IMG/VR virus record: IMGVR_UViG_3300025030_000128
Coordinates: 1 to 56,546 of that record
Reading direction: 5' to 3' (one strand)
DNA: 56,546 nt
Source: a virus
Lineage: Duplodnaviria; Caudoviricetes
The notes beneath the pieces were generated by a model. It was not told the DNA's origin and searched no databases. It was given only the letters and a program-made list of their open reading frames with translations. Positions within the stretch are counted from its first letter, which is position 1. Every line of letters starts with the position of its first letter. The translations under genes were made by a program, and so were the position numbers. Below, one piece after another: positions 8,388 to 56,546 of this stretch.

Positions 8388-8957
8388 TTAATAAAGGGCT
8401 GAATAAATGACAGCACGTTCATCGCTATAGCCGCGTTTTATTCTGTCATAGATTCTGTCTCTCTTAATTCCGTAATGTTCCGCCCATTGAGTTATATTTT
8501 TTGTTACGCCCTCAATTGTAATTAAGTGGCATTGTCGGCTATTGTTACCTTGTTCTTTTTTTGTAGACCACTTAACATTTTCCGGCTCATAGTTTCCGTC
8601 GTTTTTAATGCGGTCAACTGAATGATCTCTTGATGGACGCTGACCAATATCTTTTTTGAATGCTAGGAAATCGTTCTTCCATTTATCGCAAACGACAATT
8701 CCCCTTCCGCCATAATTATTATAGTGCACGTGATTCTTATTATAGCAACGCTCTAACATTTTCGACCATAAACGGAAAAGGTTTGTCTTTGTTTCGTTGT
8801 GCTTTACCCTGTTACAACCACAGGATTTTGAAAGCCCGCGGGTAAGCGAGCTTTTGTATATATCTTTGACGACACCGCAATCGCATTTGCACGTAAGGTG
8901 ATGTTTCTTTGTGCTAATCCCGATGACTAAGAGTTTTCCATATTTATTTCCTATCAT
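8388..8957 (-). CDS. Free-standing HNH-type homing endonuclease
   Basis: GNKYGKLLVI, CKCDCG, SCGC, YGGRGIVVC and HSVDRIKNDGNYEPENVKW motifs; visibly AT-rich. Confidence 0.85.
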   Translation of the reverse strand: MIGNKYGKLLVIGISTKKHHLTCKCDCGVVKDIYKSSLTRGLSKSCGCNRVKHNETKTNLFRLWSKMLERCYNKNHVHYNNYGGRGIVVCDKWKNDFLAFKKDIGQRPSRDHSVDRIKNDGNYEPENVKWSTKKEQGNNSRQCHLITIEGVTKNITQWAEHYGIKRDRIYDRIKRGYSDERAVIYSALY

Positions 8958-9306
8958 CTTCTTGCTCCCGGAGAAGAAGTTCGAGGCGGGCGAGGCTATT
9001 CCAGACCTCATGAGAGAGATGTAGGAGCCCACTGTCCTGAGCATGGGTCTCTCCCTTACAGATGTCCAGCTCGTGTCTCATTTGGGCGTCTGCGTAGCGG
9101 AGCTGCCCGTTGGGGATGGTGTGCCAGGTATCCCATCCGTGCTTCGTGGCGCCGAACTCGGAGACTCTGGCGACTTGCTCCAGGGCTCTAGGAAAGTAGC
9201 GCAGGACAGAGTGGATGTGGGCCTTGCCGTTGTCATGTTTGGCGCCAGGGTCGACAAGGAAAGATTTCCATGGATACAGTTTGGCGTCCTCTTCTTGGTC
9301 GCTCAT
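8944..9306 (-). CDS. dATP/dGTP diphosphohydrolase (DUF5664-like)
   Basis: GAKHDNGK, V.EFGA.KHG, RY.DA.MRH and DSGLLHL.H..WN motifs. Confidence 0.8.
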   Translation of the reverse strand: MSDQEEDAKLYPWKSFLVDPGAKHDNGKAHIHSVLRYFPRALEQVARVSEFGATKHGWDTWHTIPNGQLRYADAQMRHELDICKGETHAQDSGLLHLSHEVWNSLARLELLLREQEDDRK

Positions 9307-10311: not shown

Positions 10312-10530
10312 TTAAAGCAAAATACCCCAATCTTCGGACAGCATATCGAGATTGTTCGGGTTCCACGGAAACAGTTTTCCGGCAACGTCGCTCATGTAAA
10401 TGTACGAGTGTCCCATTTTGCTGTTTTCGTCGCAAACCTGAAGAGCTAACCACATTCCCTTGCCATTCCAGCCATCACGACTTACTTTGCTTCCGAGCTT
10501 GAGTGCTTCCAACGCTTGTCCGAAATTCAT
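10312..10530 (-). CDS. tad2: DUF2829 / Tad2-like anti-defence nucleotide sponge (72 aa), cassette-borne
   Basis: MNFGQALEALK.G.KV.R.GWNGKGMWL ... PW.P...DMLSEDW signature; AAGGAG RBS. Confidence 0.85.
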   Translation of the reverse strand: MNFGQALEALKLGSKVSRDGWNGKGMWLALQVCDENSKMGHSYIYMSDVAGKLFPWNPNNLDMLSEDWGILL

Positions 10531-10563
10531 ACTGTTCTCCTTTGTAGTTTGGTTGCCCATGCG

Positions 10564-10622
10564 CCATAACCAGCGCATAGACACCGGCTCCCGCTGGTCG
10601 CGGGTCATGCTTGTCGTTATCC
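10564..10622 (+). other. attC-like site (canonical geometry)
   Basis: CCATAAC-cagcg-CAT[A]GAC[A]CCG-gctcccgctggtcg-CGGGTCATG-cttgtc-GTTATCC. Confidence 0.9.
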
Positions 10623-10988
10623 CTGATGGTGTAAGTAGCGCCCAATCTTAGAGTGCTTCACTTGCCGGGCTGCCTGAATCCGGCCAGAATCAATATCCTT
10701 CCCTGCATATTGCCCAGCGGCTAACAGGTCTAGCGCGGCCAGCACATCACCGCATTCGCGCTCCAACAGCTCCCTATTAGTTGGGCCTCCGTCAGGGTGC
10801 CGGGACTCGTAGCCATGCCTGAGAATTTTCCCGACAGCCTGAATTACCTCGCCGCATTCTTCCGCCAATAGTGCAAGTCGTTCGACCTCCGCAAGGGAAA
10901 GGAACGGGATAACCAGTGAATCGACCGGAGGTTTATCCTTGTCGCACTGGCACTGCATGGTTGATGTATCTACCGTCGATTTACACAT
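10617..10988 (-). CDS. MazG-like nucleotide pyrophosphohydrolase
   Basis: LAEECGEVIQAVGKILRHG ... LERECGDVLA: EExxE...ExxD all-alpha NTP-PPase pattern. Confidence 0.8.
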   Translation of the reverse strand: MCKSTVDTSTMQCQCDKDKPPVDSLVIPFLSLAEVERLALLAEECGEVIQAVGKILRHGYESRHPDGGPTNRELLERECGDVLAALDLLAAGQYAGKDIDSGRIQAARQVKHSKIGRYLHHQG

Positions 10989-11342
10989 TTCGTTCTCCCG
11001 GTCATTCACAGACCCGTTAAATAGATCCCTGGCCCCATTAAATCTCCGCATGGTGTCTCCTGACCTTCCGAGACCTGCGCAGAGAAACTTAGACCGGCGG
11101 CATATAGACTGATTGCTGGCCGGGAGACTCACATACCCTGTATCGACCGCCCGTATCGTGGGCTAAACGCTCCGCCTTCCCCTTGTGGTGTTGGGAAGAA
11201 CCATTACAGCCATGCGTATGATAGGTCGTTTGCTCCGGGGCTAAGAGCGGGTAAGCGGTCTTTGGTGCGACTTCCTTGCCAGCCTTCCGTCCTCAGTTTG
11301 GGACATTTGGTGAGGCCCACTGGCGAGGCCAAGAGCGGGCAA

Positions 11343-12093: not shown

Positions 12094-12105
12094 CTTTTCC
12101 TTTCT

Positions 12106-12576
12106 TTAGGTGGCCAGATACTTGACCGCATCAACAAATGACATCTGATCACGATCGATCAGTGTATCAAGGGCTGAGAAGTAGCGGTTACAGGACCCAC
12201 ACCAGGCGATCCCCTTCTTGCTCATGAAGGTGAGCGACGGCCGCTTGTCGTCGTGGCACCAGGCGAAGGCTTTCCCGAAGCGGTCGAACTGAATCACCGC
12301 GGTCACAGGGACGGCCCGGGCCGCCTCGATCATGGCGTCGGTAATCTGGTTGGTCTGTTGGGGTACAGAAAACTCTCCGCCTTCGTTCTTAGTCAGGTAG
12401 GCGATCTCGTCGAGGATTTCTTTGGCGAAGTGGAGAGCAACCGGAGAACCGTCGAGGATCAGGGCGCCGAGGTAGGGGGTGAGGAATCTCTTTCTCATGC
12501 GACTAGCGGCGAGCTTGTTGATCTCGAACTCCTTGGCCTTGCGGAAGGTAAGCGCGGGGTCTTTATTGGCGAACAT
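12106..12576 (-). CDS. CHC2 (primase-type) zinc-finger protein
   Basis: WCHDDKRPSL..WCGSC...D....MSFVDAVKYL resembles the DnaG zinc-binding domain; no TOPRIM domain. Confidence 0.7.
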   Translation of the reverse strand: MFANKDPALTFRKAKEFEINKLAASRMRKRFLTPYLGALILDGSPVALHFAKEILDEIAYLTKNEGGEFSVPQQTNQITDAMIEAARAVPVTAVIQFDRFGKAFAWCHDDKRPSLTFMSKKGIAWCGSCNRYFSALDTLIDRDQMSFVDAVKYLAT

Positions 12577-12584
12577 GGATTCTC

Positions 12585-12749
12585 CTACTGATCGAGCGGA
12601 TGCCCTTCCGCTTCGTGGTCCTCAACACAGCATTCGCAGTAGTACTTCCCTCCGTCCACCGCATAGACCTCTTCTGGCTGAATGCGGTCCCGGCAGTCGA
12701 GACAAATCTTTTCGGTGTCGGAGGTACGGCGGGCAAGATTTGGTATAAT
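12585..12749 (-). CDS. Small Zn-finger ORF with an atypical (ATT/ATA) start
   Basis: ICLDC...YYCECC; AAGGAA upstream but no ATG. Confidence 0.35.
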   Translation of the reverse strand: MIPNLARRTSDTEKICLDCRDRIQPEEVYAVDGGKYYCECCVEDHEAEGHPLDQ

Positions 12750-12761
12750 TATTTCCTTTTT

Positions 12762-12974
12762 TTAAGTAGGTCTTCCATCGCACATTGGGCAAGCGTGAGA
12801 GCCTGGGTTTCTTTTGAAATACTCAATGATTCGTAAAGAACCTCCACCTTCAGCGCATGGATCGCCTTCGCAGTAAGCACAAGTTCCATTCAGGCCGCGA
12901 GGATAATCTGCGATATAAAGAACTTCGAGCTGTTCTTTTGTTCCATCTCCTGAGAGATAATCAACTACTGACAT
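12762..12974 (-). CDS. Small Cys-rich hypothetical protein
   Basis: CAYCEGDPC...CPMCDG; AT-rich. Confidence 0.6.
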   Translation of the reverse strand: MSVVDYLSGDGTKEQLEVLYIADYPRGLNGTCAYCEGDPCAEGGGSLRIIEYFKRNPGSHACPMCDGRPT

Positions 12975-12986
12975 ATTTTTTTCCTT

Positions 12987-13850
12987 TCAGAATGGGCAAT
13001 CGTGGTAGACGGGAATGGAATACTCTTTGTCGCTGAGGCATTTGAAGCGGCCGGTCTTGCGTTCGTAGTCGAGATGGACAGAACCGATCTGCCCCATCCA
13101 CTTGAGCTTCACCTTGGCCGCCTCAATTTCGATTTGGTTCTTTGTCCTGTCGGGACGGTGGGCGATGAAAGCATAGTCCACCTTGTTCCACCACATTGCC
13201 CCGCCTGAGATGTCAGAGACGGTGCATCGTGGCATTTTCCCCGTCTTGTCTTTCATGGCAGACTTGGGATGAGCGACGATGTTGACCAGAATGTTTTGCC
13301 GGCGGGCGAAGTAAGAGATTTCGGTTAGTATCTCGGCCAGGTATTCGTCCTCTCTTTGTTCCCGGCCCCGGGCATGCGAGCAGCCGTTCCAGGGATCGAT
13401 CACTAGGCAGTCGAGACCGCCTATTTCCATCTTCCGTTTTGCTTTTTCGAGGATCTGCTTGGGTGAAGGCAGGTCGTCCTCAATGTTGATCCAGGAGAAC
13501 GAGTCGTTGATGCGGGCGAGCACTTCTTTGCACTCGGTCTCAGTGAACTGCTTGACCCATTTGCCGACAATCTTTTCCGCCAGCTTGGCGATATGCTCCT
13601 GCACCGGGTAGTTTTCCGGCGAGAAGTACAGTGTTTTCCAGCCGTGCATGATCGAAGCGTTGACCAGAACCGCGTCGAGCCATTCGCTCTTGCCGCTACC
13701 GGGGTATCCGGTTACCACTCCGAGATATCCCTTGGCCAGCTTGAAAAGTTCATCGAGGTCCTGGTAGCCAGATGAGTAGGTCTTGCGGAAGGTTGTTTCA
13801 GTGCGGAGCTTGTGAAATTCTCCGGCAAGTTCGTTCGCAGAAATAATCAA
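12987..13850 (-). CDS. dnaB: DnaB/SF4-type replicative helicase (ATPase domain)
   Basis: Walker A TGYPGSGKS, VIDPWN, VAHP and DISGG motifs. Confidence 0.85.
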   Translation of the reverse strand: MIISANELAGEFHKLRTETTFRKTYSSGYQDLDELFKLAKGYLGVVTGYPGSGKSEWLDAVLVNASIMHGWKTLYFSPENYPVQEHIAKLAEKIVGKWVKQFTETECKEVLARINDSFSWINIEDDLPSPKQILEKAKRKMEIGGLDCLVIDPWNGCSHARGREQREDEYLAEILTEISYFARRQNILVNIVAHPKSAMKDKTGKMPRCTVSDISGGAMWWNKVDYAFIAHRPDRTKNQIEIEAAKVKLKWMGQIGSVHLDYERKTGRFKCLSDKEYSIPVYHDCPF

Positions 13851-18289: not shown

Positions 18290-18498
18290 TGTCCTCTCCC
18301 TCGGCTCCAGGGTTGGCTGTCGGGCCGACACCACGGACAAAGCGATATTGCATGCCCATTGCACCTAGCGAATGCTCCTTGGCTATCTGCGTCGCCAGGG
18401 TAGACGGTTTTGCAGTCGACACATTGGACCGATGGGTCAGAGCCCGCCGATCGTCCGTCTGGATGATGCGTGTATCTCACGAGCTTTCCAGTTTTCAT
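18286..18498 (-). CDS. Small Cys-rich protein
   Basis: CVDC...CPWC; ATGA overlaps on both sides. Confidence 0.55.
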   Translation of the reverse strand: MKTGKLVRYTHHPDGRSAGSDPSVQCVDCKTVYPGDADSQGAFARCNGHAISLCPWCRPDSQPWSRGRGQ

Positions 18499-18788
18499 GG
18501 TGCATTCCTTTCGTCGTAAATTCTGTTGAGTTCAGCGATCGCCCATTCGTAGTCGAGACCGTACAACTTGGCAAACGACCGCTTACCGAGGTCGTGCCGC
18601 GCTCTGTGGTGCTCATTACAGAGAGGAAGGCAGCGACGGTCAGAACACTTTAGTCCTTTGGCGCCGCCGCCCTTCTCGGGCTCGTGGTGAGGTTCAATTG
18701 GGCCAGGTTTGTGACAGATGAGGCAGATGGTGTTGCGGATCCAGGCTTTGTATTTCTCGTCACGGAGCGTCTGTGGCTTGGGGAACAT
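18495..18788 (-). CDS. DUF968-like HNH/Zn nuclease
   Basis: Y..WIR...CLIC...HHE...K.SD..CLPLC..HH..RH. Confidence 0.7.
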   Translation of the reverse strand: MFPKPQTLRDEKYKAWIRNTICLICHKPGPIEPHHEPEKGGGAKGLKCSDRRCLPLCNEHHRARHDLGKRSFAKLYGLDYEWAIAELNRIYDERNAP

Positions 18789-19164: not shown

Positions 19165-19989
19165 TCAAGCGGCCTGCTTCAATTCTGCCATGCGCTCCGC
19201 CATCAGCCAAAGCGCTTTATTCAATTTCACGTCCTGGTCAACACCAGTAATGGCCCGGGTGGTCATGCGGCGACGGGTGCGGCCCTGAGACTGACCGTGG
19301 ATGCCGCCCTTGACGATGTTCTCCTGCACCTTGTTGAGCGTTGTGAAAAGGCTGAGGTCCTTGTCCTCGTATCTCCGGGAGTTCAACAACTGCACCGGAT
19401 TGATCGGCGGAGCTTCAGGATAGCGAAGCGATAAAGCGGCCTCGGCGAAGATCCCCTGCTCATTGGGCGTGAGGGTAATCGCTTGGAACTGTTCGACCTG
19501 ATCCTGAATCCGCGGGACTTCTCCGCCGATAGCAAAGGCCGCCCGCATCGCTTCTTCCAACACGCTGCCGCTGTGCCGAATGGAGACCTTCTCAAACGTC
19601 GAGTCCGCTACGATCATTCCGTTGGAACAGACTAGGCGAAAGAGGCCGGCGTGCATTTGATAGGCAGAAGCCCCGTCGTGCGAGTTGACCAGGATGATCT
19701 CGGGGAAGAGATCGCCCTTCATCGGAGCGGCGTCCGCATGTCTAAGGCGAATGAGGTGCTTGACGTAGCCATGCTTGTCGTCGATCCGGGTGCGGGCTTC
19801 AAAGGCCCTGAAGGGCTGATAGCCTTCGCTGCGCATCGCTTCAATGACGTCGATAGTTGGAACGAAGCCGTACTTGTCCGACATCTTGTGATAGGGCTCC
19901 AGGGCGAAGATACTGGGCGCCATACGCATCAGCATGGCGTTGTCGAGCGGGGTCGTACCTGTGCTGCGGGACTGGCGTATGAAGCTCAT
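19165..19989 (-). CDS. DUF932 (DUF945/YubP-like) family protein
   Basis: APSIFA, S.KY.FVPT, KHLIRLR, NSHDG.SAYQM.AGLFRLVCSNG and LNKALW motifs. Confidence 0.9.
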   Translation of the reverse strand: MSFIRQSRSTGTTPLDNAMLMRMAPSIFALEPYHKMSDKYGFVPTIDVIEAMRSEGYQPFRAFEARTRIDDKHGYVKHLIRLRHADAAPMKGDLFPEIILVNSHDGASAYQMHAGLFRLVCSNGMIVADSTFEKVSIRHSGSVLEEAMRAAFAIGGEVPRIQDQVEQFQAITLTPNEQGIFAEAALSLRYPEAPPINPVQLLNSRRYEDKDLSLFTTLNKVQENIVKGGIHGQSQGRTRRRMTTRAITGVDQDVKLNKALWLMAERMAELKQAA

Positions 19990-20180
19990 GGTTGATCTCC
20001 TTTCAGGGCGATGATGCGGGTGTGCATCTCGGCGATGGCGCTGTGCGGGCTCTTTTTCCCCATTTCTTTGTAGGTGGCCGAAACGATCATGGCGGCCTTA
20101 TACTTGGCGCGACTGAAGCCCGCTTCGTAGCCTTCCTGGCGGGCCTGCTCCAACCTGATTCGATCTTCGTCATTACTCAT
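19986..20180 (-). CDS. Hypothetical protein
   Basis: 64 aa ORF with ATGA overlaps. Confidence 0.6.
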   Translation of the reverse strand: MSNDEDRIRLEQARQEGYEAGFSRAKYKAAMIVSATYKEMGKKSPHSAIAEMHTRIIALKGDQP

Positions 20181-20797
20181 TGGGTAACCTCCGGAAAGAG
20201 GACCGCCTTCATTACCAGGTAACCACTGTCGCCCGGGTGAATGCCGTCGTAGAGATAGAGGATCTGGCCATAGTCGTTGAGAAACAAGGGGTAGAGGTTG
20301 ATGTACTCGACTGAAGGGTAGTTCACGAGCATCTTCTGAATCTGCTGGTTGGTCTCGACGATGGTGGTCAAGGGAATGCGGTCGGTCGGCAAGATGCTTT
20401 CGACGTGGATCTTGGTCGACGATGGCAACTGCAGGATCATCTTCTCGATGTTCTCGACGACATGTTGTGTCGGCCTGTCCCAGCCTTCACCAAAGGCACA
20501 GAGATCGTTGACGCCGATCATCAAGTATAACTCGTCAGGTTCTTCCTTGACGACCAGCCAGAAGCGCGCCAGGACGTCGGTGGTCTTGTCGCCCGGGACA
20601 CCGCGGTTGATGGCGCCTTCGGGAAGATACTGTTGCGGCCAGCCGGCGGTGATACTGTCGCCCAGCATCATGATTCCGCCGCGGTGATTTTCCGAAGCCC
20701 AGCGCGGCACCAACCAGGTTCCCGGCTTGGGGTCTTCCGAGTCACCACCACCACAGGCTGACAAGAGCAGGGCAACCAGAACAATCCATCGCTTCAT
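20177..20797 (-). CDS. Lipoprotein with SGNH/GDSL hydrolase domain
   Basis: Lipobox LLSAC; GDSIT, NRGVPGD, GVND and DGIHP blocks. Confidence 0.85.
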   Translation of the reverse strand: MKRWIVLVALLLSACGGGDSEDPKPGTWLVPRWASENHRGGIMMLGDSITAGWPQQYLPEGAINRGVPGDKTTDVLARFWLVVKEEPDELYLMIGVNDLCAFGEGWDRPTQHVVENIEKMILQLPSSTKIHVESILPTDRIPLTTIVETNQQIQKMLVNYPSVEYINLYPLFLNDYGQILYLYDGIHPGDSGYLVMKAVLFPEVTQ

Positions 20798-27692: not shown

Positions 27693-27711
27693 GCTTTTCA
27701 GGAGTGGCGCG

Positions 27712-29799: not shown

Positions 29800-29802
29800 G
29801 CC

Positions 29803-30998: not shown

Positions 30999-31091
30999 CT
31001 GAGCGGGACCCGCCAGTCAACACCACTTTGGGGAGAGTAACCGCACCCCGCAACGGCCATACCCCACCGGGAGGCCAAAGGAGACGAGGAA

Positions 31092-32003: not shown

Positions 32004-32027
32004 TCCCTTACCCTACGGAGAAACGCC

Positions 32028-33083
32028 ATGAAACACATCGACCGCTTTATTTTCGGCAATCTGCCGATGCTTCTCTGGATGGTGGTGGGCATTGCCCTCG
32101 TCGCCATCTTTGGTGACGCTGCCGCCCTGTGGTGCACCGTTCCCGCCGCCGCCGGTTATCCCACCGGGGGCTCGGCCGGCGCCAGCAAGTACACCCCGCA
32201 GATCTACGCCAAGAAACTCTTGGTCAAGTTCTACAAGAAAACTGTCTTCGGCGAGATCGCCAATCGTGATTACGAAGGCAGCATCACCGGCCAGGGCGAC
32301 AAGGTCCTGATCCGCACCCGCCCCTCGGTCACCGTCTACAAGTACTACAAAGGGATGGATCTCAACGAGAAACGTAAAGCGCTTGAGCCCCCGAACGTCG
32401 AACTGATCATCGACCAGGCCCTCGGCTACTCGGTGGCTATCGACAGCATCGACAAGATCCAGAACGATGTCAATGCCCTGGACGAGTGGGCACAGGATGG
32501 CTCCGAGAATCTCGGCATCGAGATGGACCGCGACATTCTCAATACCATCTATGCCGACGCCGCCACGACCAATAAGGGCGCGACTGCCGGGGCTGTTTCC
32601 GGTGGGTACAATATCGGCGCCGCCGGGTCTCCGGTTGCCCTGACCAAGTCGAACATCCTCGACTACATCGTCTACTGCGACAGCGTTCTCTCCGAGAACA
32701 ACGTCCCGGTGCCCGACCGCTTCATCATCATCCCCGAGTGGGCCAAGTCCTGCATTAACACCTCGGATCTGCGCAGCGCGCTCTTTACCGGTGACGCCGG
32801 CAACCAGAACCTGCGCAACGGCAAGATCGGTGGCATCAGCAACTTCACCGTCTACGCCAGCAACAACCTGACCGCGGTGACCGATGCCGCCGACGGAAAC
32901 AGCTCCTGCTACAACATCCTCTTCGGCCAGAAGTCGGCCCTGACCTTCGCGTCTCAGTTGGTCAAGAACCGCACCCTTGAACTCCAGAACACCTGGGGGC
33001 ATGTCATGGAAGGCTTGCACGTCTATGGCTACAAGGTCGTCAAGTCCGATGCGCTCGGTGTGCTCTACGCCAAGAAGGGTTAA
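32028..33083 (+). CDS. Major capsid protein (HK97 fold)
   Basis: PQIYAKKLL.KFY, N.DYEG.I...GD.V.IR, LIIDQ, NGKIG and GLHVYGYKVV motifs. Confidence 0.9.
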   Translation: MKHIDRFIFGNLPMLLWMVVGIALVAIFGDAAALWCTVPAAAGYPTGGSAGASKYTPQIYAKKLLVKFYKKTVFGEIANRDYEGSITGQGDKVLIRTRPSVTVYKYYKGMDLNEKRKALEPPNVELIIDQALGYSVAIDSIDKIQNDVNALDEWAQDGSENLGIEMDRDILNTIYADAATTNKGATAGAVSGGYNIGAAGSPVALTKSNILDYIVYCDSVLSENNVPVPDRFIIIPEWAKSCINTSDLRSALFTGDAGNQNLRNGKIGGISNFTVYASNNLTAVTDAADGNSSCYNILFGQKSALTFASQLVKNRTLELQNTWGHVMEGLHVYGYKVVKSDALGVLYAKKG

Positions 33084-47390: not shown

Positions 47391-48824
47391 ATGGCCGACC
47401 CCATTGCGCGGGCGATTCAATCTTACGGCGCCCTGAAGAACATTGAGCATCAGGACGCGATCAACGAACGGCAAGAGCAACAGATGGACCGTCAGGATCG
47501 TCTCGACGCGATTGCCATGGAAGACCGTGAAAAGGCGGCCGCAATTCAGACCGAGGACCGCGCCTGGCAGAAAAAGCAGCGGGCGGTACAGGAAAAGGAA
47601 TGGAATCTGAAAGAGCGGGAGCGGGCCAAGGGTGAAGTCAACAAGATCCTGCACTCGGCTCTCCTGGAGGCCAAGGGCGACGAATCCAAGATCAACTGGG
47701 GCGCTGTGGCCCCACAACTGAAACCGTACTATGACGCCGAACTGTTGCCGGAAAAGTTCAAGACCGTCTTCGAGCCTGACCGCCTTAATAAAGAACTGGG
47801 CGCCACCCGAGGGCTTCTGGATATGATGGCCACTGGTAAACTCGACCACACCAAAGGTTTGATGCTCTTGAATAGCAGCTTCAAGGGCGAGCTCTACGAG
47901 CGTGGTAAAAGGAATGGTGCTACTGGCTTCACCCTGGTCGATGCCGTCCCTTCCCCGAACGCCGACGGCTTTATGTTCGAGGCCGAACTGAACTACCCCA
48001 AAGGTTCTCGCCGCGCTCCCCTGACGGTCAATGCCGGAACCGAGGATCAGGGCGACAACGAAGTGAAGAATTTCCGCCTGGAGCATGAGGTCGCCCCCTA
48101 TGTCGTTTCGAAGTACCGGGCGCTGAAAGGGATCGAGGCCTACCTGCAGTCGGAAGGGGTGATCAAACCTAAAACCGAAAAGGGACGCAAGGTTATTGAA
48201 GTCGGAGATCCTGGCGCCAAGGAACTTGTCTACGCCGATACTGGCAAAAGAGTGCGGGCGCTGCCCCAGGGCCCCGGAGTAGTCAAGGACAACTCCGATT
48301 CGTCCAGTGGGCTCAAGCCCAATGAAGAGCGACAGATCCGCGGCGAAGTGCGCAAGATCCTGCAGTTCAATTTCATCGCCGACTATTTCAGCGCCGCCGA
48401 CATTGAGACGAAGAAGAAGCTGGTGGCGACGATCCCGGGCGCTTCAGTAAATCCCGAGACCGGCAAGATTGTCACCGATCCCAAATTCAACGTGCAATGG
48501 GATAGGGTCATTGCCGCCTTACCTCCCGAGGCACAGAAACAGTACAACCGTTCCGAGCAGTATGCCGGCCTGATGATTGGTCAGGGGCGCATGCTGGGCA
48601 ATCCTGCCGGCATTGCCACTGAGGCAATCAGTAAAGCCTCTCTTGCCGAAGCCCCGGGTCAACAACAGGCGATTCCGAGCCAGCCGGCACCACCAAGCAA
48701 GCCACCTTTTGATGTCGCCATTACCGAGGCCCGGGCCAAGCTCGCAAAGCGTCCGGACATGAAACAAGAGATCATGCGCAGAATCGATGCGATCTATGGC
48801 CAAGGCGCTTCGCAAAACATCTAG
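47391..48824 (+). CDS. Internal virion/ejection protein
   Basis: 477 aa with N-terminal coiled coil; precedes the giant protein. Confidence 0.65.
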   Translation: MADPIARAIQSYGALKNIEHQDAINERQEQQMDRQDRLDAIAMEDREKAAAIQTEDRAWQKKQRAVQEKEWNLKERERAKGEVNKILHSALLEAKGDESKINWGAVAPQLKPYYDAELLPEKFKTVFEPDRLNKELGATRGLLDMMATGKLDHTKGLMLLNSSFKGELYERGKRNGATGFTLVDAVPSPNADGFMFEAELNYPKGSRRAPLTVNAGTEDQGDNEVKNFRLEHEVAPYVVSKYRALKGIEAYLQSEGVIKPKTEKGRKVIEVGDPGAKELVYADTGKRVRALPQGPGVVKDNSDSSSGLKPNEERQIRGEVRKILQFNFIADYFSAADIETKKKLVATIPGASVNPETGKIVTDPKFNVQWDRVIAALPPEAQKQYNRSEQYAGLMIGQGRMLGNPAGIATEAISKASLAEAPGQQQAIPSQPAPPSKPPFDVAITEARAKLAKRPDMKQEIMRRIDAIYGQGASQNI

Positions 48825-48840: not shown

Positions 48841-51800
48841 ATGGGCATGTTCGATGATATTCCCGATGAGCCTACCGTCAGCTCTTCGCAACCCGCATCC
48901 TCTCAAACGATGTCGAGCGGGCTCTTCGATGACATCCCCGACGTTCCTGAAGTTGAAGATGCGCCAACGTCTGCAGACGGTTCGACCATGGGCGATTTCT
49001 TCCGCGACCTTCCCAATGCCGCTATCCGTACCGCGCAAAGTATTCCTGTTGGCGTCCGTAAGACAGCGGGCGCCATTGGCGTCTTAGGGGCTGACCTTGG
49101 CCTTCGTCCTGGTGATTCCGGAGGCGAAGACGGCCCCGTCGTAATGACCCCCGAAGAATCCCGTCAAGAGCTTCGCCAGGCTGACGCCGAGTCGCAACAA
49201 CTGCAGAGGGATTATCCGACCAAGACAGAGCTGGGCGGGTTGGTGGCTGGTGCTGGCGAGTCTATCGCCTATATGGCGCCGATGCTGCCCGCAGGACCCG
49301 GAGCGGCCGTGGCCGGCATGGCGGGACGAACCGCGATCGATACCTACGGCGAAGCCCGAGAGCTGGAAGGGAAGTCGGTTCAAAACGCTGGGATCGAGGC
49401 GGTCGTTTCCGGGACGGCCGAAGGCGCGCTGGAAATGGCGCCGACCGCCATGTTGTTCGATCTCTTCGGCAAGTCGGCCAATAAGTCTTTGGCCGGCAAG
49501 CTGGTCAAGTACTTTGCCGCCGAACAGGTTACCGAAGTTCCGACCACCTTAATTCAAAACGCCGCCGACATCTACACCTCGAACGATCCCCAGGCAGAAG
49601 AGAAGGCGATGCAGTATGCCCTCGACTACCGGGATTCGATTCTCGGAGGCTTTGCCGAGACTCCGGACATTACGGTCGATGGCCGCAAGTACAACGCCTA
49701 CAACGATATGGTCCAGACGATGAAGCAGACCGCAGTTCAGGCGGGCCTCATGGGAGCCCCTGCGGCCGGTCTGAGGGGCGTTCATAAGCTGGCCATAGGA
49801 GAGGCAGGGCGGGCGCAGGAGCGGGTTGACAAAGAGGCCTACGACGCTCTCAGTAAGCCTGACCGCAAGCAGTACGACGCTGCCGTGGAAGAGCAAGCGG
49901 CTGGCCGCAGTCTGAACCGGATGTTTGGCCGCTCGAACGAAATTGAACGCCGCGACATCGACCTCCTCAATCCCGAGGCAGAGTTCGACGTCGAGGCCTA
50001 CCTTAGAGGAGAGCAAAATGATCTGTCAGAATCCGAACTGCCGCTGTCTGGGAACGAGACCGGGACGCCTCTGCAAGAAGTGCGGACACAAACAGCCGGC
50101 GTAGACTCGCCTGTTGTTCCTCCCGTTCCTATTCCTCCGGTGGAATTAGTAGCACCTCAGACTTCCCCAATGCCCCTACAGCCGGCGATCGTACCCTGGC
50201 AGATGGCAGTGCCGCCCCCCGCAGAAGAGATTGCCCCAGAAGTCTTGCCCACTCAGACTCAACCCCTACAGGAGGAACCTACCAATGCGATGCCCACGGT
50301 GTCAGGAGCTAGTGAAGCGGGGCAGTCGATGCCCGAATTGCGGGAAGGTGGTTCGACCATAGGCGAAGCGACCGACGCCGAAGGAAACGAAACGGTTTTC
50401 GTTACACAACCCGGACCGCGCCTTCGTCCTGCCACTGAAGAAGAGATTGAAGAGTTTGCGGAATTGATGCGCGAAGCTGGCGTCAAGGAAGGGTCCGACT
50501 CTTGGAATAAGATGCTTGCCAGCAAGACTAACGGCATCAAGATCCGAGCGATCGACCCTCTCAGTGGCTACCAGGGCCGCTCCGAGTTTGGGCTGGCTCT
50601 GCCGAAGATCTGGGAGAGGCATGTTGAAGGGGTCCCAGTTACCATCACTGAGTTCGACATTGTTAATCTCGGCGGACTAAACGAGAATATCGGAGAGCCG
50701 GAAGCGAATAAGGTTCTGACGGACATCTACAAGATCTTCTCCGATACTCTCGTCTCTTTCGGGATCAAGGACGCGCAGCTCTTTCGCAATGGCGGCGACG
50801 AGGGCCAGGCGGTCTCGACCGCGCCGAAAGAACTTCAGGTGCAGGCCGTAGCCGAGGCCAAGAAGAGAATCGACGCCTACGTCAAAGAGAAAGGTCTGGA
50901 GAAGACTTTTGGCAAGACTGCCAAAGGCCAACCGAAGAACACGACGGAAATTGGGACCGGGATTTACCACGCAACCGAGTCATTCTCCGACTGGCCGAAC
51001 TTGCAAGACGCAATCGATGCTGTTAAACTTGGGGTGAACGAAGCAAAGCGAGCAGAGAAAGGGCTAGACGATGGGCGAACAAGCATTGAAAGACCTGGGA
51101 CTGTTCGAGCTGAAGGACAACCCGCAAGCACTGAAGGCGGAGATGTCCAAGATGCGCCAGGAGCTGGAGTCCCGCCGGCTCAAAACTCCTCGACCAACCT
51201 CTACTCAGGTATCCCCCTCCCGGAACTGAAGAAGCTCGCCGGCAATCTCAAAGCGGCCTATCCTCATCTGCTCAACCTCGGCTCCCAAGTCTATCAGGCG
51301 GGCCACACTACCCTCGACCAATTCAAGAAGGAAATGCAGCGTGTTTTGGGCGACCTCTACCGGTCGTTCAAGGATGCGATGATCCGCGTCTTCAATGACG
51401 TACGTGCCCGCCTGAAGGACGAGCGTGGCGTTGTCGGCAGGGACATCAATGAGCTTCGGAAAGACGAGGCCTCCGCCGATCAGGTCTCTCCCAAGGACAT
51501 GACCGACGATGATGTCCAAGTTGAAGACACGAGAGAAGCAAGAGTGCTTTTCGTTGGACTAGAATTAAGTAAAGCGAAGCGCCAAATTGAAAACGATCAA
51601 CTTTGGGAATCAACGGTCGATAAGCTTCGTTATCTTTATAGGGTTGTTCCGGACAAAGACCTTCGGGAAAAAATAACGGAGATGGCAAATCTTTATATTA
51701 AGGCTTTGGCCCCCGGTAAAACTTTCGGCTCAATCGAAGACAAGGAGCGTGAGGCGGCCAAACAGAGAATTGCAGAGAGGAAGGCAAAAGACGGGGCAAC

Positions 51801-54800
51801 CGAGTCTGTCGACCGCATAATTAAGATACCGAAAAAAAATGAATCTCCTGAGCTGGCAAAGAAGGACGAAGCGGACGCTGACCAAGTTACCCCCAAAAAG
51901 ATGACCGACGAAGAGCGCAAGGTCATGCACGAACGTCTGTTCGACGAGCAGTACCGTGCCCGCCGGGAAGAGAACGAAGATCAGATTGAGGAGACGGTCG
52001 ACTTTACCGACGAGGCGCCGATCAAAGACTCCCGCGACTACGAGGACAACTTCTTCCCTTCTGGGAAAGAGTTCTTCCCTTCTCGTTCTTCTGGGGTTCA
52101 AGACAAAGCGAAGCAGGCTCAGGTGCGGGAGCTGAAAGATTCGCAGGGCATGCAGATGGCGCAGGACGATGATGCCAAGCTCCGCAAGATCCGGCCGATG
52201 ACGATGATGGAATCAGAAGTCGTCCGCTCGAACGATGCCCTTGCCTCCGCAGGCCAGAATATTGAGAAGCGCGAAAGGGCGGCCGCCAAGAACAACGCGA
52301 CCGCCGATGCGTTTCAAGAGAAGTTCTGGCAGGCCCAGAAAGACGCCCTCACCTACGCCGCCAAGGAGCTTGCCCGCAATCCGCTCATGACCACTGCCGA
52401 GAAGGGCCGGCAGACGCTGATGCAGATTATCGGCAATGACCTGGCTCAGTTGGCCGAGACGTTCTACGCCGCCGACCTCATTGCCTTCATCGAGAAGAGC
52501 AAGAACGGGGGTCAGCTCGCTACCTTAACCGGCTACCCGGACGCCCTCACAGAGCTTCTGGACTACCAGGAAAGGTATTACGCGAGCGATGTCAACCAGA
52601 CGTCCGAGGAAGCGACCGACGAAGAGGCCGAGAACGCACCCCGCTCTATCGCCGACCGTAAAGCCGTGAATGCTGAGTATGAAGCGGAGCGGAAAGAGGA
52701 AGTACAAGAGGAAGATGTCGATACCGTTTCCAAGGAGGAGCTATCCGCTCACAGAGAAAAGCGGGATGCAGAAGAAAAGGCGACCGCGAAGAAGGAGGGC
52801 AAGCAGAAAAGAGCTGAACGTTCTTATGCTCGTCAACGGTTCGATAAGGCGGGCCTTGCTCTCTTCAAAAAGAAAGACACTGCCAACCAGCAGTTAATCT
52901 CTGAGAACTGGAAGGGCTTTTTCCTGGGGGTCGCCGATCATATTTTCAGCGGTAAGGTCAATGAGCTCAAGGATGTCGATCATGCGCTGATTGCTCACAA
53001 GATGGTCGGGACCAAGAAGGTGACGAAGGAGTTCCGCGATCTCTACATGCACGGCGACCGCAGCAAGGCGATTGAAATCGTCAAGGAGATGATGGAGCAC
53101 TCGATCCTTCTTCTCCCGTTTGAAAAGGAAATGACGTCGGATCTCTACCGCGGCGAAGTAGAGTTGCCGGCCCGGGTGCAGCCGAAAGAGAAGTTCGCTC
53201 CGGTCTATACCAAGCACGACGCCTTTATCGACAGTCACTGGGATGCCCTCGACAAGATCCTGAAGGACATTGTCCTCTCCTCTGGAAAGAACCAGGCCGC
53301 ACCAAAGCACCGTCAGGAATTGCCAGGCGGGCGTCCTGGGGGTCAGGTCTATGTCTGGAGTGTCATGCGGAAAGATTCGCCGCTGAATCTGAGCGAAGCG
53401 ATGAACCGGCTGTTCGACAAAACAGACTACGACGGCGCAACCCGCCAGAGTATCTTCGACGAGATGCTGCACCGCTCCGGGCTTACCGCCCTCAAAGGAT
53501 CCACCTACCCCGTCAGTGAGTTCGCCGAATCGAAGTATGCCGAAGGCGCCATGCAGCCGGTCGAACTGAATCCCGTTGACCAGACCGAAGAGACCCGGCT
53601 GCGCGAGGTTGCCGGCGTCAAGGTCAATGAAGATGGAAAGTTGTTGAACTATGACTTTGGCAACGACATTATCGACATGATCCGCGACGTTGTCTACTCC
53701 GACCTGGGGAACCAGATTGCCGAGGAGCGGGGCTTCCCTTCGAGGGATGCCTACGTCAAACATTTGGCGCAGAGATTCAACACTGGTTGGCCGAAGGTGA
53801 AGAACCACAAGGAGTCGGACGCGATCAAGAAGAAGCGTGGTCAGGCCCGGGAACTCTTTTACAAAGAAGACTTGCCACTGATCAAGGCTGCCCGCATGGA
53901 GCGCCAGTATCGGGACAAGAATCTACTCGACAAGGATTTCTTCGAGAAGATCGTCGCCTTGGCTCCTGAAGCCGAGATGAGCGCAGAAGAGGCTTACGGT
54001 ATCTGGATCCGGAGAGGAAACTACGGGGCAATCTATGCTGAGGTCAGGCGGCGGGCGGAAGAGAATCTACAGGCCAAGGCCGACAAGAACTTTGCTGTCC
54101 TCAAGGAGCTGCGGAGCAAGGGCGCCCGGGCCATCGCCGAAAGTATCCTGACTCCGGCACAGCAGAAGCAGTACGGCTTGGCACGGTCGTCAATGGAGAA
54201 AGGAAAGCCCAACTTCAAAGGGATCGACACCAAGGACCGTTCAGCTCTGGTTGCTGCGTTTCAGATTGAGCAGGACTTGCTGGCCGGCCGCGAAGCTGAA
54301 CTGGCCGATCTCAAGCTCGATCACGGCTACCCGGTCCAGGCAGAAGACGTCTTTCAGCGGGACCTCGATAACATCTTTGCCGAAGAAGCCAACATCGGCG
54401 GACTCAAGGTCGGCAAGTTGCGCAACGAGGCGGCCCAGAAGTTCTACCAGGCGGTCGCCAAAGCGTTCGGCGCCGAGCTGGTTGTCGTCTCTGATCCTTT
54501 TTACCGCTCCCGCTACATCGGCTCTACCGAGGGACAGAGCAAGATCGTCGTCAATGTCCAGGAGAGCAAGCAGATTGAAAAGCTCTTCGCTCACGAGCTG
54601 TTTCACCATGTTGTCAACCGGGCTGATCCTGCTGCCTACAGGGAGTTTGTGCGGGCGGTGAAGCTTGTGGTCGGGCAAGAGAAGTGGGACGCCGCACAGG
54701 CCCGCCTGCTTCGCCCTGATAGCCTTTCCGAGATGAGCATGAGCGAGGCGGTCGACGAAGTGCTGCGCGATCCCAACAATGAAGCACTCGACGAAGAGAT

Positions 54801-56546
54801 GTTGGCCGATCTCTTTACTGAGGTCTTCACTCAGACCGAGTTTTACAACGAGCTGGCCAAGACCATCCCGGGACGGACGATGGCCCAGAAAATCATCGGC
54901 CGCCTGGTCAATCTGGTCGCAAAGGTGCTTAAGTCGATTGACGGCAAGGCACGGTGGGGCTACGAAGAGATTCAGTTGCTCGGTCCTTCCCAGATGTCTC
55001 AGATTCTTTCTCTGGTTTCCGATCTCATGTCGTCCCTCGGGGGGGAGAAATATTCAGGCGAGCGCTACTTCATGCGGCTGCCGGAGAAGGGCGAAGCGGT
55101 TCCTCTGCCGTTCACCGGCCCGCTCGGCATGCCCAAGTGGTCGGATATCTTTCCCAAGGGAAGTAAAGCCCATACCGTCATTCTCGACGCCATTGAGCAA
55201 CTGGCCAAAGATTCAAAGAAAGCCCTGGGCCGACTGGCCCGAGTGATCATGGCCGACGTCGGGGCCGAGAAGAAGGTGCAGGATCTTGCCTATGCCCTGG
55301 CCTACACCGCCAATCAAAAGCTCGACTTTCTGGAAGCGACCGTTCTTGACAAACACAAGGACACCTTCGACAACTGGGTGGGTGAACGGATTCAGAAGGT
55401 CAAGGCTCAGGCCGATGCCGATCTCAAGGCGGGCAAGCTGAAACAGAGCTCCTATGACAAGGTCATGGAGGCCAATAAGCGCGAGTTCTACTTCGAATCG
55501 ATGCACGACGACTTCGTCCGCCGGCCGGATCCGAACCGCATTCGTCAATACCCTCAGACGGTCCGGGACGCCTTCGCCGACTTTAAGGAAGTGGCTGACG
55601 ACATCCACGCCGAACTGGTCAAGCTCGATCCGGAGATGGCCGAGCAATACCGGGAAACCCATCAGCTGCAGACGATCCGCTGGCAGAGCAAGGGGGCCCT
55701 TCCCTTTGACGACAGCTTTGCCTCTCTCTCCGCGCGGTCGAAGCTGGAAGGCGACAAGAACTTTCTCAAGACCAAAGACACCGAGCGGACCACCGCCGAG
55801 ATCCGCAAGGACGGTTTCGAGTACGACACCATCCATCCGCTTCAGATGGCGCGCAACTACATCCATGACGCCTACAAGCTCATCGCTTTCCGGGAGATGA
55901 TTCAGAACGCCTACCAGACCGATGTTGAGTTTGAGGTCCTGGGGAAAGACGGCAAGCGCACCACCGTCAAGAAAGAAGCCGCCAAGATTTTCGCCAACAC
56001 CTTCCAGGCTAACAAAGAAGGCTATCGCCCGGTCAACGACAACGCCACTCAGATCCTCATGGGACTGAATGGCGGCATTGGTTACCGGGTCAAAACCGAC
56101 CAGGGCTATCTGCGGGAAGACGGCGTTGAGATGGTCTTCGGGACGGAACATGAAGCCAACCAGAAAGCGATCTCGCACCGTCAACTCTTTGGCGGAGCTG
56201 CAAAGGTCGAAGCACAGCGCGGACAGAAGAAGGTGACCGAAGGACCCGGTTTCGTTGTCACGCATATCGGCAAGAATGGCGAACGAATCACCGGGAAGCG
56301 CTTTGACGCCGCCGCTGCCGCCCGCGAATATGCCGACAGTCTTGGTGAAGGGTACTTGGTGGAAAAGGAACTGATCGGCGCCGACTCGGTGCCGGTGGCG
56401 CGCATCTACTTCCACCCCGACCTGGCCCGGATGATCAACCGATTGACGGCAACCAACCATCTTCTTTCAGGATCCACTGGGAAGTATTTCGGGCGGCCGT
56501 TCATGGCGGTAAAGAACTACATGACCAAAATGGTCTTTGCGGTCTC
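48841..56546 (+). CDS. Giant internal-virion polyvalent protein, N-terminal ~2568 aa (GGDEF-like and HExxH peptidase domains); runs off the window end
   Basis: ATG 48841 after GGAG. The ORF track lists no terminated ORF in this frame, consistent with an open frame to the end. Contains FDDIP repeats, DPLSG/RNGGDEG and HELFH..EEMLAD. Confidence 0.85.
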   Translation, partial: MGMFDDIPDEPTVSSSQPASSQTMSSGLFDDIPDVPEVEDAPTSADGSTMGDFFRDLPNAAIRTAQSIPVGVRKTAGAIGVLGADLGLRPGDSGGEDGPVVMTPEESRQELRQADAESQQLQRDYPTKTELGGLVAGAGESIAYMAPMLPAGPGAAVAGMAGRTAIDTYGEARELEGKSVQNAGIEAVVSGTAEGALEMAPTAMLFDLFGKSANKSLAGKLVKYFAAEQVTEVPTTLIQNAADIYTSNDPQAEEKAMQYALDYRDSILGGFAETPDITVDGRKYNAYNDMVQTMKQTAVQAGLMGAPAAGLRGVHKLAIGEAGRAQERVDKEAYDALSKPDRKQYDAAVEEQAAGRSLNRMFGRSNEIERRDIDLLNPEAEFDVEAYLRGEQNDLSESELPLSGNETGTPLQEVRTQTAGVDSPVVPPVPIPPVELVAPQTSPMPLQPAIVPWQMAVPPPAEEIAPEVLPTQTQPLQEEPTNAMPTVSGASEAGQSMPELREGGSTIGEATDAEGNETVFVTQPGPRLRPATEEEIEEFAELMREAGVKEGSDSWNKMLASKTNGIKIRAIDPLSGYQGRSEFGLALPKIWERHVEGVPVTITEFDIVNLGGLNENIGEPEANKVLTDIYKIFSDTLVSFGIKDAQLFRNGGDEGQAVSTAPKELQVQAVAEAKKRIDAYVKEKGLEKTFGKTAKGQPKNTTEIGTGIYHATESFSDWPNLQDAIDAVKLGVNEAKRAEKGLDDGRTSIERPGTVRAEGQPASTEGGDVQDAPGAGVPPAQNSSTNLYSGIPLPELKKLAGNLKAAYPHLLNLGSQVYQAGHTTLDQFKKEMQRVLGDLYRSFKDAMIRVFNDVRARLKDERGVVGRDINELRKDEASADQVSPKDMTDDDVQVEDTREARVLFVGLELSKAKRQIENDQLWESTVDKLRYLYRVVPDKDLREKITEMANLYIKALAPGKTFGSIEDKEREAAKQRIAERKAKDGATESVDRIIKIPKKNESPELAKKDEADADQVTPKKMTDEERKVMHERLFDEQYRARREENEDQIEETVDFTDEAPIKDSRDYEDNFFPSGKEFFPSRSSGVQDKAKQAQVRELKDSQGMQMAQDDDAKLRKIRPMTMMESEVVRSNDALASAGQNIEKRERAAAKNNATADAFQEKFWQAQKDALTYAAKELARNPLMTTAEKGRQTLMQIIGNDLAQLAETFYAADLIAFIEKSKNGGQLATLTGYPDALTELLDYQERYYASDVNQTSEEATDEEAENAPRSIADRKAVNAEYEAERKEEVQEEDVDTVSKEELSAHREKRDAEEKATAKKEGKQKRAERSYARQRFDKAGLALFKKKDTANQQLISENWKGFFLGVADHIFSGKVNELKDVDHALIAHKMVGTKKVTKEFRDLYMHGDRSKAIEIVKEMMEHSILLLPFEKEMTSDLYRGEVELPARVQPKEKFAPVYTKHDAFIDSHWDALDKILKDIVLSSGKNQAAPKHRQELPGGRPGGQVYVWSVMRKDSPLNLSEAMNRLFDKTDYDGATRQSIFDEMLHRSGLTALKGSTYPVSEFAESKYAEGAMQPVELNPVDQTEETRLREVAGVKVNEDGKLLNYDFGNDIIDMIRDVVYSDLGNQIAEERGFPSRDAYVKHLAQRFNTGWPKVKNHKESDAIKKKRGQARELFYKEDLPLIKAARMERQYRDKNLLDKDFFEKIVALAPEAEMSAEEAYGIWIRRGNYGAIYAEVRRRAEENLQAKADKNFAVLKELRSKGARAIAESILTPAQQKQYGLARSSMEKGKPNFKGIDTKDRSALVAAFQIEQDLLAGREAELADLKLDHGYPVQAEDVFQRDLDNIFAEEANIGGLKVGKLRNEAAQKFYQAVAKAFGAELVVVSDPFYRSRYIGSTEGQSKIVVNVQESKQIEKLFAHELFHHVVNRADPAAYREFVRAVKLVVGQEKWDAAQARLLRPDSLSEMSMSEAVDEVLRDPNNEALDEEMLADLFTEVFTQTEFYNELAKTIPGRTMAQKIIGRLVNLVAKVLKSIDGKARWGYEEIQLLGPSQMSQILSLVSDLMSSLGGEKYSGERYFMRLPEKGEAVPLPFTGPLGMPKWSDIFPKGSKAHTVILDAIEQLAKDSKKALGRLARVIMADVGAEKKVQDLAYALAYTANQKLDFLEATVLDKHKDTFDNWVGERIQKVKAQADADLKAGKLKQSSYDKVMEANKREFYFESMHDDFVRRPDPNRIRQYPQTVRDAFADFKEVADDIHAELVKLDPEMAEQYRETHQLQTIRWQSKGALPFDDSFASLSARSKLEGDKNFLKTKDTERTTAEIRKDGFEYDTIHPLQMARNYIHDAYKLIAFREMIQNAYQTDVEFEVLGKDGKRTTVKKEAAKIFANTFQANKEGYRPVNDNATQILMGLNGGIGYRVKTDQGYLREDGVEMVFGTEHEANQKAISHRQLFGGAAKVEAQRGQKKVTEGPGFVVTHIGKNGERITGKRFDAAAAAREYADSLGEGYLVEKELIGADSVPVARIYFHPDLARMINRLTATNHLLSGSTGKYFGRPFMAVKNYMTKMVFAV

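Follow-up and report, generated by a model that had tools for sequence, protein, structure and literature searches.

The 56,546-bp stretch of DNA analysed here (the window; IMG/VR virus record IMGVR_UViG_3300025030_000128, Duplodnaviria, Caudoviricetes, 56.4% G+C) raises the question whether the giant protein encoded at the end of the late operon of this short-tailed phage contains a working nucleotide cyclase, and what such an enzyme would do for the phage. An earlier note, made from the letters of the DNA, had placed a divergent GGDEF nucleotide-cyclase domain within this protein at 50551..51060. Frame +1 of this segment reproduces exactly the peptides quoted there (IDPLSGYQGR, FDIVNLGGLNENIGEPEANKVL, LFRNGGDEG and VNEAK), and the assignment is upheld by Pfam, a family profile, an AlphaFold2 model and structure matches. 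The domain is somewhat wider than proposed, and it is preceded by an extension that starts at 50437. The giant open reading frame (ORF) and the parts of it that surround the domain are the following.

48841..56544, plus strand: giant ORF, residues 1–2568, which leaves the 3' end of the record with no stop reached

2..1852, plus strand: continuation of the giant ORF, residues 2573–3188 and stop, the far end of the same protein across the record junction

50041..50340, plus strand: proline-rich linker, residues 401–500, with 22 Pro per 100 residues, ahead of the cyclase module

50437..50529, plus strand: two-helix extension, residues 533–563 (model helices 4–16 and 24–34, and alignment A2)

about 50536..51093, plus strand: GGDEF-type nucleotide cyclase domain, residues 566–751, by Pfam, A2 profile, model, Foldseek and VIA-align

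51094..51210, plus strand: Gly/Pro/Ala-rich linker, residues 752–790, downstream of the module; the predicted local distance difference test (pLDDT) value of the model is below 65 beyond model residue 210

In the whole protein the Pfam family GGDEF (PF00990) matches residues 570–713 with E 1.4e-5 and 25.4 bits (model positions 2–138 of 161); on the 170 residues delimited in the earlier note the score is 26.2 bits. Two family alignments were used. A1 is a profile of three sequences, i.e. the window domain and its relatives P0005 and P0006, and A2 is an alignment of 38 full-length domains with an overall identity of 22–54%. Compared with the PDB, the A2 profile matched 48 solved GGDEF-type chains at E <= 0.01, the best being DosC with 7.9e-13; the remaining rows were two glycosidases with E 0.2. 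The AlphaFold2 model calculated from A2 has a mean pLDDT of 91.2 and a predicted TM-score (pTM) of 0.79. With this model Foldseek returned 122 PDB matches at E <= 0.001, and all of the matches listed are GGDEF-domain structures, with a probability of 1.00. Superposition by VIA-align gave Z 19.6 for GcbC (5euh; root-mean-square deviation (rmsd) 2.2 Å over 153 residues), Z 18.6 for PleD with GTP-alpha-S and Z 19.2 for the Geobacter Hypr enzyme. These matches span an rmsd of 1.8–2.5 Å over about 150 residues and include the GTP-bound cyclases 5llx and 2v0n. The earlier note had named profile comparison and structure prediction as its check and a missing GGDEF fold as the counter-case; the fold is predicted with high confidence. 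By profile and by model, residues 566–751 are a genuine GGDEF domain.

The residues of the predicted active site were mapped by profile alignment (A2) to DosC. The PleD residues D327, N335, D344, K442 and R446, which we take to be the equivalent positions, serve as reference for the elements listed here.

50656..50682, plus strand: D606-I-V-N609-L-G-G-L-N614, a Gly-rich loop in place of canonical DxDxFKxxN

50707..50709, plus strand: N623, codon AAT, at the Watson-Crick-face position, i.e. the Asp of canonical 'GD' (PleD D344 / Hypr GacA S348)

50785..50805, plus strand: R649-N-G-G-D-E-G655, the RxGGDEF signature with Gly replacing Phe

50935..50937, plus strand: K699, conserved in at least 90% of A2, in 'HPK', a motif specific to the subfamily that reads QPK in this protein

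51046..51060, plus strand: K736-R-A-E-K740, the Lys of the C-terminal helix (PleD K442 position) and a Lys at the R446 position

D606 aligns with the first metal-binding Asp at the end of strand 1 (PleD D327 position), G611 with the Lys of canonical DxDxFK and N614 with the canonical sugar-face Asn (PleD N335 position). The acidic pair D653/E654 of the GG[DE]EF signature is kept. Among the single-copy relatives described below, D606, N614 and GGDE are each found in 87 of 87, G612 in 86, R649 and N609 in 82 each, and K736 in 69, with 15 gaps at this position. The subfamily is thus described by the signature DxxNxGGxN ... (N/D) ... R-x-GGDE-hydrophobic ... HPK ... GxG ... K. An RxxD motif, the I-site for feedback by the product, is present in none of the 213 domain copies in the canonical register five residues before GGDEF; the window domain reads I642-K-D-A645. 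The I-site is common in diguanylate cyclases but not obligatory. With the two acids for metal binding, the Asn for guanine contact and the Lys for phosphate binding all present, the module looks catalytically intact as far as its residues can be compared.

The earlier note had singled out an Asn at the PleD D344 position. This Asn (N623) is confirmed, but it is not peculiar to this phage, since Asn is the commoner state in the subfamily: the Watson-Crick-face position is Asn in 66 of 125 domains, Asp in 52 and another residue (A, E, T or Q) in seven. Consequently, Asn alone cannot mark the window protein as a maker of a non-standard nucleotide. Of the residues typical of a GTP-specific diguanylate cyclase, the window domain has the sugar-face Asn and lacks the Watson-Crick-face Asp. 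Compared with Hypr enzymes, which produce cyclic GMP-AMP, it shares GGDE but has Asn in place of their Ser or Thr; among the 125 domains Thr occurs once at this position and Ser never. Natural Hypr enzymes of the Ser/Thr type are described as always having GGDE and never GGEE, a 'Goldilocks' rule (PMC6456294), and throughout our subfamily the motif is likewise GGDE, never GGEE (87 of 87 single-copy relatives).

The history of the Asn/Asp exchange was followed on a tree of 125 domains, one best-filled copy per protein, from which copies with fewer than 130 of 180 filled columns had been dropped and the specificity column itself excluded. Parsimony requires 26 changes between Asn and Asp on this tree, at least seven of which are forced by well-supported branches. 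When the labels were shuffled the mean was 39 changes, and 0 of 500 shuffles was as low as the observed number. Hence, the state is heritable, yet it has been switched many times. The window domain belongs to a supported clade of four with P0005, P0006 and P0008, all three of which carry Asp, and its AAT codon is a single transition away from GAT for Asp. No column of the alignment co-varies with the Asn/Asp state, the highest mutual information being 0.26 bit. The invariant sugar-face Asn (87 of 87) argues for guanine as at least one of the substrates; the identity of the product cannot be read from the sequence.

The domain belongs to a distinct subfamily that occurs mainly in giant phage polyvalent proteins. 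Searched against 1.84 billion representatives, the A1 profile found 481 proteins (cluster representatives) at E <= 0.001, 124 of which reach E <= 1e-10. Word-indexed homologue searches gave, among giant proteins, only P0003, the database entry of the window protein itself, and besides it two shorter relatives, P0005 with 54% and P0006 with 47% identity to the window domain. A set of 151 proteins (P0003, P0005, P0006, the protein P0007 from locus L002 introduced below, and 147 other matches listed) was re-scanned with A1, and 150 of them matched, 87 with one copy and 63 with two tandem copies of the domain. More than half of the 147 (76) exceed 1,400 residues, the longest having 7,849. Of these 76 giants, 17 were analysed with Pfam in rank order: 11 contain GGDEF, six LPD1/3/5/38/39, ART-PolyVal, PBECR2 or InPase, and others SNF2/ResIII helicase, Fic, NUDIX or SLT domains. 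By this domain content the giant relatives belong to the polyvalent proteins of Iyer et al. 2017. All 41 listed matches of up to 700 residues were also analysed with Pfam, which gave GGDEF in 36 cases and no further family at E <= 1e-4. Most of the proteins of about 460–680 residues among these 41 have two tandem copies, the first of which is often decayed; D653 is kept in 34 of 63 first copies. P0010, P0016, P0020, P0021, P0024, P0028 and others of this size (about 460–680 residues) consist of an N-terminal part of about 100–130 residues followed by two tandem copies. In six of the 151 proteins (P0012, P0030, P0036, P0067, P0094 and P0138) an InPase pyrophosphatase domain lies about 70–280 residues from the cyclase, on either side, which makes good sense beside an enzyme whose reaction sets pyrophosphate free.

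Cluster look-up of ten relatives gave three names, two of the type 'GGDEF domain-containing protein' and one adenine methylase/GGDEF protein. GGDEF proteins are also annotated in cultured phages, with eight BFVD matches at E <= 0.001, e.g. from Bacillus phage SP-15 and Bordetella phage CN1. A scan of IMG/VR gave one distant locus, L002. No match was obtained in the genome_contigs scan with A1, in the viral_contigs scan with the tandem protein P0016, or by tblastn against 50,697 phage records with the domain or the C-terminal 616 residues as query.

The giant gene is split by the ends of the record. The database protein P0003 (3,188 residues) equals the giant ORF of the window, followed by S-A-F-H and the 616 residues encoded at 2..1852, with S93Y as the sole mismatch. 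The record ends with '...GCG GTC TC' and starts with 'C GCC GGC', so that 9 nucleotides, most of the codons for S-A-F-H, are absent at the junction. Since P0003 joins both pieces and the termini fit, the giant gene runs across the ends of a circularly permuted record. Despite the database label (linear, 77% complete), the genome is, judging from these sequences, probably near-complete and circularly permuted. Within the protein, the cyclase module (residues 530–760) is bounded by the Pro-rich linker before and the Gly/Pro/Ala-rich linker after it. The two-helix extension ahead of the GGDEF core is kept among the nearer relatives in A2 and may be a stalk or a dimerisation element.

A polyvalent protein is giant, combines unrelated effector domains and is encoded together with virion or transfer genes. 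The window protein fits in size and in its place in the late operon, with GGDEF as the one domain identified. Three of its segments match polyvalent relatives, namely residues 121–451 (P0030, E 2e-17), 1902–2036 (P0074, E 1e-6) and 2752–2823 (P0136, E 2e-4). An iterated LPD38 profile did not reach P0003, and links in the ESM Atlas from the window protein to LPD23 and LPD38 clusters are leads only.

At the position of the giant gene, related phages encode giant internal or ejection proteins. Upstream of it, on the same strand, lie genes for terminase, portal, major head protein, the internal virion protein phrog_511 (E 1.6e-142) and tail fibre. The nearest relatives of the phrog_511 protein are from Vibrio phage douglas 12A4 and from short-tailed Stx phages. 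The genes relevant for the comparison are given below.

47391..48824, plus strand: ORF of 477 residues directly upstream of the giant gene, the positional counterpart of a 421-residue ORF in Shigella phage 75/02 Stx

24254–32635 of locus L004: gp68 of Shigella phage 75/02 Stx, 2,793 residues, with two HExxH motifs

7124–14701 of locus L002: ORF of 2,525 residues (P0007), after the gene of a lysozyme-type protein and before a tail fibre gene

Shigella phage 75/02 Stx has the same gene order, which ends in the 421-residue ORF and then gp68, annotated as 'LPD5 domain-containing protein'. No GGDEF-like domain is present in gp68. The position at the end of the operon is conserved between the window phage and the Stx phages, and the cargo is exchanged. 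Locus L002 is an unrelated T7-like locus in which PHROGs identified a head protein, two tail-tube proteins, an internal virion protein and the lysozyme-type protein. Its giant protein P0007 has an LPD22 domain, a decayed copy (RRGGGRF) and an intact copy (FRNGGDEF) of the cyclase, and an HExxH motif directly after both. Its place is presumably that of gp16 in phage T7. By gene content, two podovirus lineages place the cyclase at the position of an ejection protein, and this order leads us to infer that the giant protein is probably packaged in the particle and injected with the DNA. The Rhizobium phage whose capsid protein comes nearest (39.7% identity) showed no such giant gene in a stretch of 26.8 kb.

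Downstream of the cyclase the giant protein has a second candidate site.

54592..54606, plus strand: HELFH, residues 1918–1922, the sole HExxH motif of the giant protein

This motif and a conserved EE about 62 residues downstream are common to the window protein, P0074 and P0064. In P0074 and P0064 the HExxH motif stands 150–200 residues beyond the cyclase. From these motifs a processing metallopeptidase, of the zincin-like type looked for in polyvalent proteins, is suspected. The Pfam family DUF5700 matches the region weakly (E 0.02), and phmmer found no match for it in the PDB. A model of the region from an alignment of three rows reached a pLDDT of 52.8, with no Foldseek match at E <= 0.001. 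Weaker Foldseek rows, zinc proteases among them, were discarded as having no evidential weight.

The same phage encodes a Tad2-like sponge, as the earlier note had stated. This gene was confirmed by PF11195 and by solved Tad2 chains (ModTad2 9eib, E 5.2e-13). It stands in a nucleotide-directed cluster.

8944..9306, minus strand; 10312..10608, minus strand; 10617..11132, minus strand: the nucleotide-directed cluster

10312..10608, minus strand: Tad2-like sponge gene (PF11195, E 2.3e-23, 82.9 bits with a cut-off of 25)

12106..13850, 18495..18788, 19165..19989 and 20177..20797, all minus strand: early-strand genes

The genes on either side of the Tad2-like gene encode a MazG-like pyrophosphohydrolase and the N-terminal domain of a dATP/dGTP diphosphohydrolase (PF18909, E 6.5e-23); the ORF with PF18909 shares sequence, in a different frame, with the ORF 8388–9044. 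The early-strand products include a primase-type CHC2 zinc ribbon, a DnaB-like helicase, an HNH/DUF968 nuclease, a DUF932 protein (E 5.9e-43) and a GDSL-type esterase. Along its entire length the Tad2-like protein can be aligned with SPO1 Gp34.65, a Tad2 with shorter insertion (E 5.8e-12), and binding of cGG or other cyclic dinucleotides is attributed to homologues with a long insertion (10.1101/2023.11.15.567273). The shared genome is the sole connection between the Tad2-like gene and the cyclase.

We consider it fairly probable that the giant gene encodes a polyvalent protein with a catalytically competent GGDEF cyclase, which is packaged, delivered and shifts host signalling. As product of the last gene of the late (virion) operon, the protein would be packed in the particle and would enter the cell with the DNA. 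GGDEF enzymes require two domains face to face. Since the window chain has one copy, two cyclase modules would pair across two chains, possibly via the two-helix extension; in the tandem relatives pairing could occur within one chain. A homodimer prediction for the module with two GTP and two Mg gave a median of 0.40 with the mark at 0.42 and one control at 0.44, and thus no answer either way. Each module would bind a purine nucleoside triphosphate through the sugar-face Asn614 and the Watson-Crick-face Asn623. Asp606 and Asp653/Glu654 would hold Mg2+, and a cyclic dinucleotide and pyrophosphate would be made. Because of the invariant sugar-face Asn, guanine should be among the substrates, and the product would most likely contain guanine and most likely be cyclic di-GMP (c-di-GMP). 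Its output would not be regulated by the product, since the RxxD feedback site is absent. The module may act while it is part of the giant protein or once it has been cleaved off. The phage would probably benefit by forcing an early shift of the host state that c-di-GMP controls (motility, pili, and surface polysaccharides, with effects on receptors and superinfection); alternatively, the enzyme may interfere with nucleotide-based defence. Phage peptides that raise host c-di-GMP are described (PMC8085984), and c-di-GMP is reported to induce PlzR, which blocks type IV pili and hence pilus-dependent phages (PMC11461919). Together these make such a block one plausible pay-off.

Several observations weigh against this reading. 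The PF00990 score lies only 1.6 bits over the curated cut-off of 23.8 and is marginal alone, and the best PDB match of the single sequence by phmmer, DosC, is not significant (E 0.51); the identification therefore leans on family evidence. Both values would fit a chance resemblance of short motifs within a large low-complexity protein, but the profile match (E 7.9e-13), the model (pLDDT 91) and the superposition (Z 19.6) across the whole domain rule this out, and we attach practically no probability to it. Pfam found no domain besides GGDEF, and no LPD domain, in the giant protein (P0003 and its pieces), and BLASTP of the window protein against gp68 gave nothing significant, with the best E of 0.12 at the HExxH site. 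No second GGDEF copy, even a degenerate one, was found in the window protein by hmmsearch with --max, nor is a dimerisation domain recognised in this single-copy chain, whereas the two copies in 63 of 150 relatives suggest that pairing matters. In addition, the signature reads GGDEG instead of GGDEF, with Gly at the last place in 8 of 213 copies. This loss of Phe, together with a single copy that has no evident partner domain, would also be expected for a catalytically silent domain, i.e. a nucleotide-binding or structural module such as a sensor or sponge of GTP or cyclic dinucleotides, and many bacterial GGDEF domains have turned into receptors. However, all catalytic residues are kept in the window and across the subfamily, and decay looks different where it occurs in the tandem relatives, as in the RRGGGRF of P0007 or the 29 of 63 first copies in which D653 is not kept. 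Moreover, GGDEF domains that serve as receptors usually bind c-di-GMP through the RxxD I-site, and none of the 213 copies has this site. A silent domain is in our view improbable.

Among the papers listed by a literature search there was no characterised GGDEF enzyme with Asn at the Watson-Crick-face position. Furthermore, c-di-GMP is described as an immune signal of some TIR-STING systems of the CBASS type (cyclic-oligonucleotide-based antiphage signalling systems; preprint 10.1101/2023.11.15.567273), so that its synthesis could be costly in some hosts. Alternatively, the enzyme may make another cyclic di- or oligonucleotide, such as 3',3'-cyclic GMP-AMP (3',3'-cGAMP) or an adenine-containing one, and by it imitate the immune nucleotides of the host (CBASS, Panoptes-type decoys), compete with them or replenish them, alongside the Tad2-like sponge. 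Asn both donates and accepts hydrogen bonds and could presumably read adenine or guanine, the position has toggled at least seven times (26 by parsimony) in 125 domains, and the motif is always GGDE, the one combination of natural Ser/Thr-type Hypr enzymes (PMC6456294). The same phage encodes the sponge, and sponges are reported to trip the Panoptes guard by removing decoy nucleotides (PMC12657218). On the other side stands the invariant sugar-face Asn, which is tied to guanine recognition in GGDEF, Cas10 and mCpol enzymes (PMC12657218). The three nearest relatives have Asp, the lack of any co-varying column (0.26 bit at most) indicates that the toggle may be near-neutral, and the sponge is of the SPO1 type with the shorter insertion rather than the long one associated with binding of cGG or other cyclic dinucleotides (10.1101/2023.11.15.567273). 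We therefore hold a different product to be rather unlikely. The more far-reaching idea that phages inject the cyclases of the whole subfamily as nucleotide weapons, with the product set by the one Asn/Asp change and the Asn type making a mixed or adenine-containing cyclic dinucleotide that jams or feeds immune sensors, appears doubtful. If it were true, CBASS receptors, or Panoptes-type guards that would otherwise detect the Tad2-like sponge of the phage, would be the targets, and the repeated toggling would record an arms race in which the identity of the product is at stake. Finally, the cyclase may be active but undelivered, if the giant protein remains in the cell that made it or enters the particle only in the form of a processed fragment; the cyclase would then act late in infection or in a lysogen. 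Gene order is the only basis for packaging, Iyer et al. also consider action during the residence of an element in its host (PMC5512222), and the possible HExxH peptidase (54592–54606) could strip modules before packaging, as proposed for P1 DdrB (PMC5512222). Against this, the giant gene is the last in the late operon, the place of an ejection protein, in two unrelated podovirus lineages, and a Pfam scan of 53 ORFs, which was not exhaustive, revealed neither an integrase nor a repressor. Confinement to the producing cell is accordingly a minor possibility.

Compared with known systems, the delivered cyclase that we favour is closest to the GGDEF domains of polyvalent proteins. Iyer et al. 2017 (J Bacteriol, PMC5512222) list GGDEF among the domains of this class, call it 'not very widespread', propose interference with host nucleotide signalling, and give Acetonema longum WP_004096050.1 as an example. 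There, too, GGDEF is embedded in a giant protein that is encoded with virion genes and predicted to be injected (PMC5512222), and relatives of the window domain carry the LPD, ART-PolyVal, PBECR2, InPase and SNF2 domains of that class. The present family differs by its 481 cluster representatives from a 'not very widespread' domain (PMC5512222), and by its distinct motif set and frequent tandem copies from what the text of that paper describes; the window protein also has no LPD domain of Pfam. Thus, GGDEF in polyvalent proteins is already known from sequence since 2017, and the signature, the census, the tandem copies and the Asn/Asp toggle are the additions made here. Our literature searches found no experimental test of GGDEF in phage polyvalent proteins.

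With canonical diguanylate cyclases (PleD 1w25/2v0n, WspR 3bre, DosC 4zve, GcbC 5euh) the window domain shares the fold (Z 18–19.6), both metal-binding sites, the sugar-face Asn, the Arg before GGDEF and the Lys of the C-terminal helix. It differs from them, at 13–20% identity, by DxxNxGGxN for DxDxFKxxND, Asn for the guanine-pairing Asp, GGDEG for GG[DE]EF, the extra HPK motif, and the absence of an RxxD I-site and of a sensory domain. Hypr GGDEF enzymes (Geobacter GacA 6d9m/5VS9; Bdellovibrio Bd0367) are similar in having a non-Asp residue at the Watson-Crick face, GGDE and the same fold (Z 19.2), but the residue is Ser or Thr there and Asn here, and these bacterial signalling proteins are regulated, having receiver domains and an I-site. 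The mCpol/OptS (Panoptes) enzymes and the Cas10 palm belong to the same palm superfamily of nucleotide cyclases in phage-host conflict, and the tandem copies in 63 of 150 relatives are, we assume, reminiscent of the two palm domains of Cas10. However, mCpol and Cas10 are not among the matches listed in either fold search, the profile search of the PDB gave only GGDEF-type chains at E <= 0.01, and mCpol is described as nearly devoid of the GGDEF motif (PMC12657218). The giant internal or ejection proteins of podoviruses, such as gp68 of 75/02 Stx and presumably gp16 of T7, are comparable in size and in their place at the end of the block of tail and internal-protein genes, but gp68 has neither significant sequence similarity to the window protein nor a GGDEF-like domain.

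The window example is compact and well modelled, and about 230 residues should be sufficient for an assay. Natural Asn-type and Asp-type relatives with 54% identity (the window domain and P0005) would allow a clean test of the specificity residue. According to the census the design is common, not rare. If the enzyme is active and delivered, as predicted since 2017, a synthase of a second messenger would reach the cell together with the phage DNA and would set host signalling before phage gene expression.

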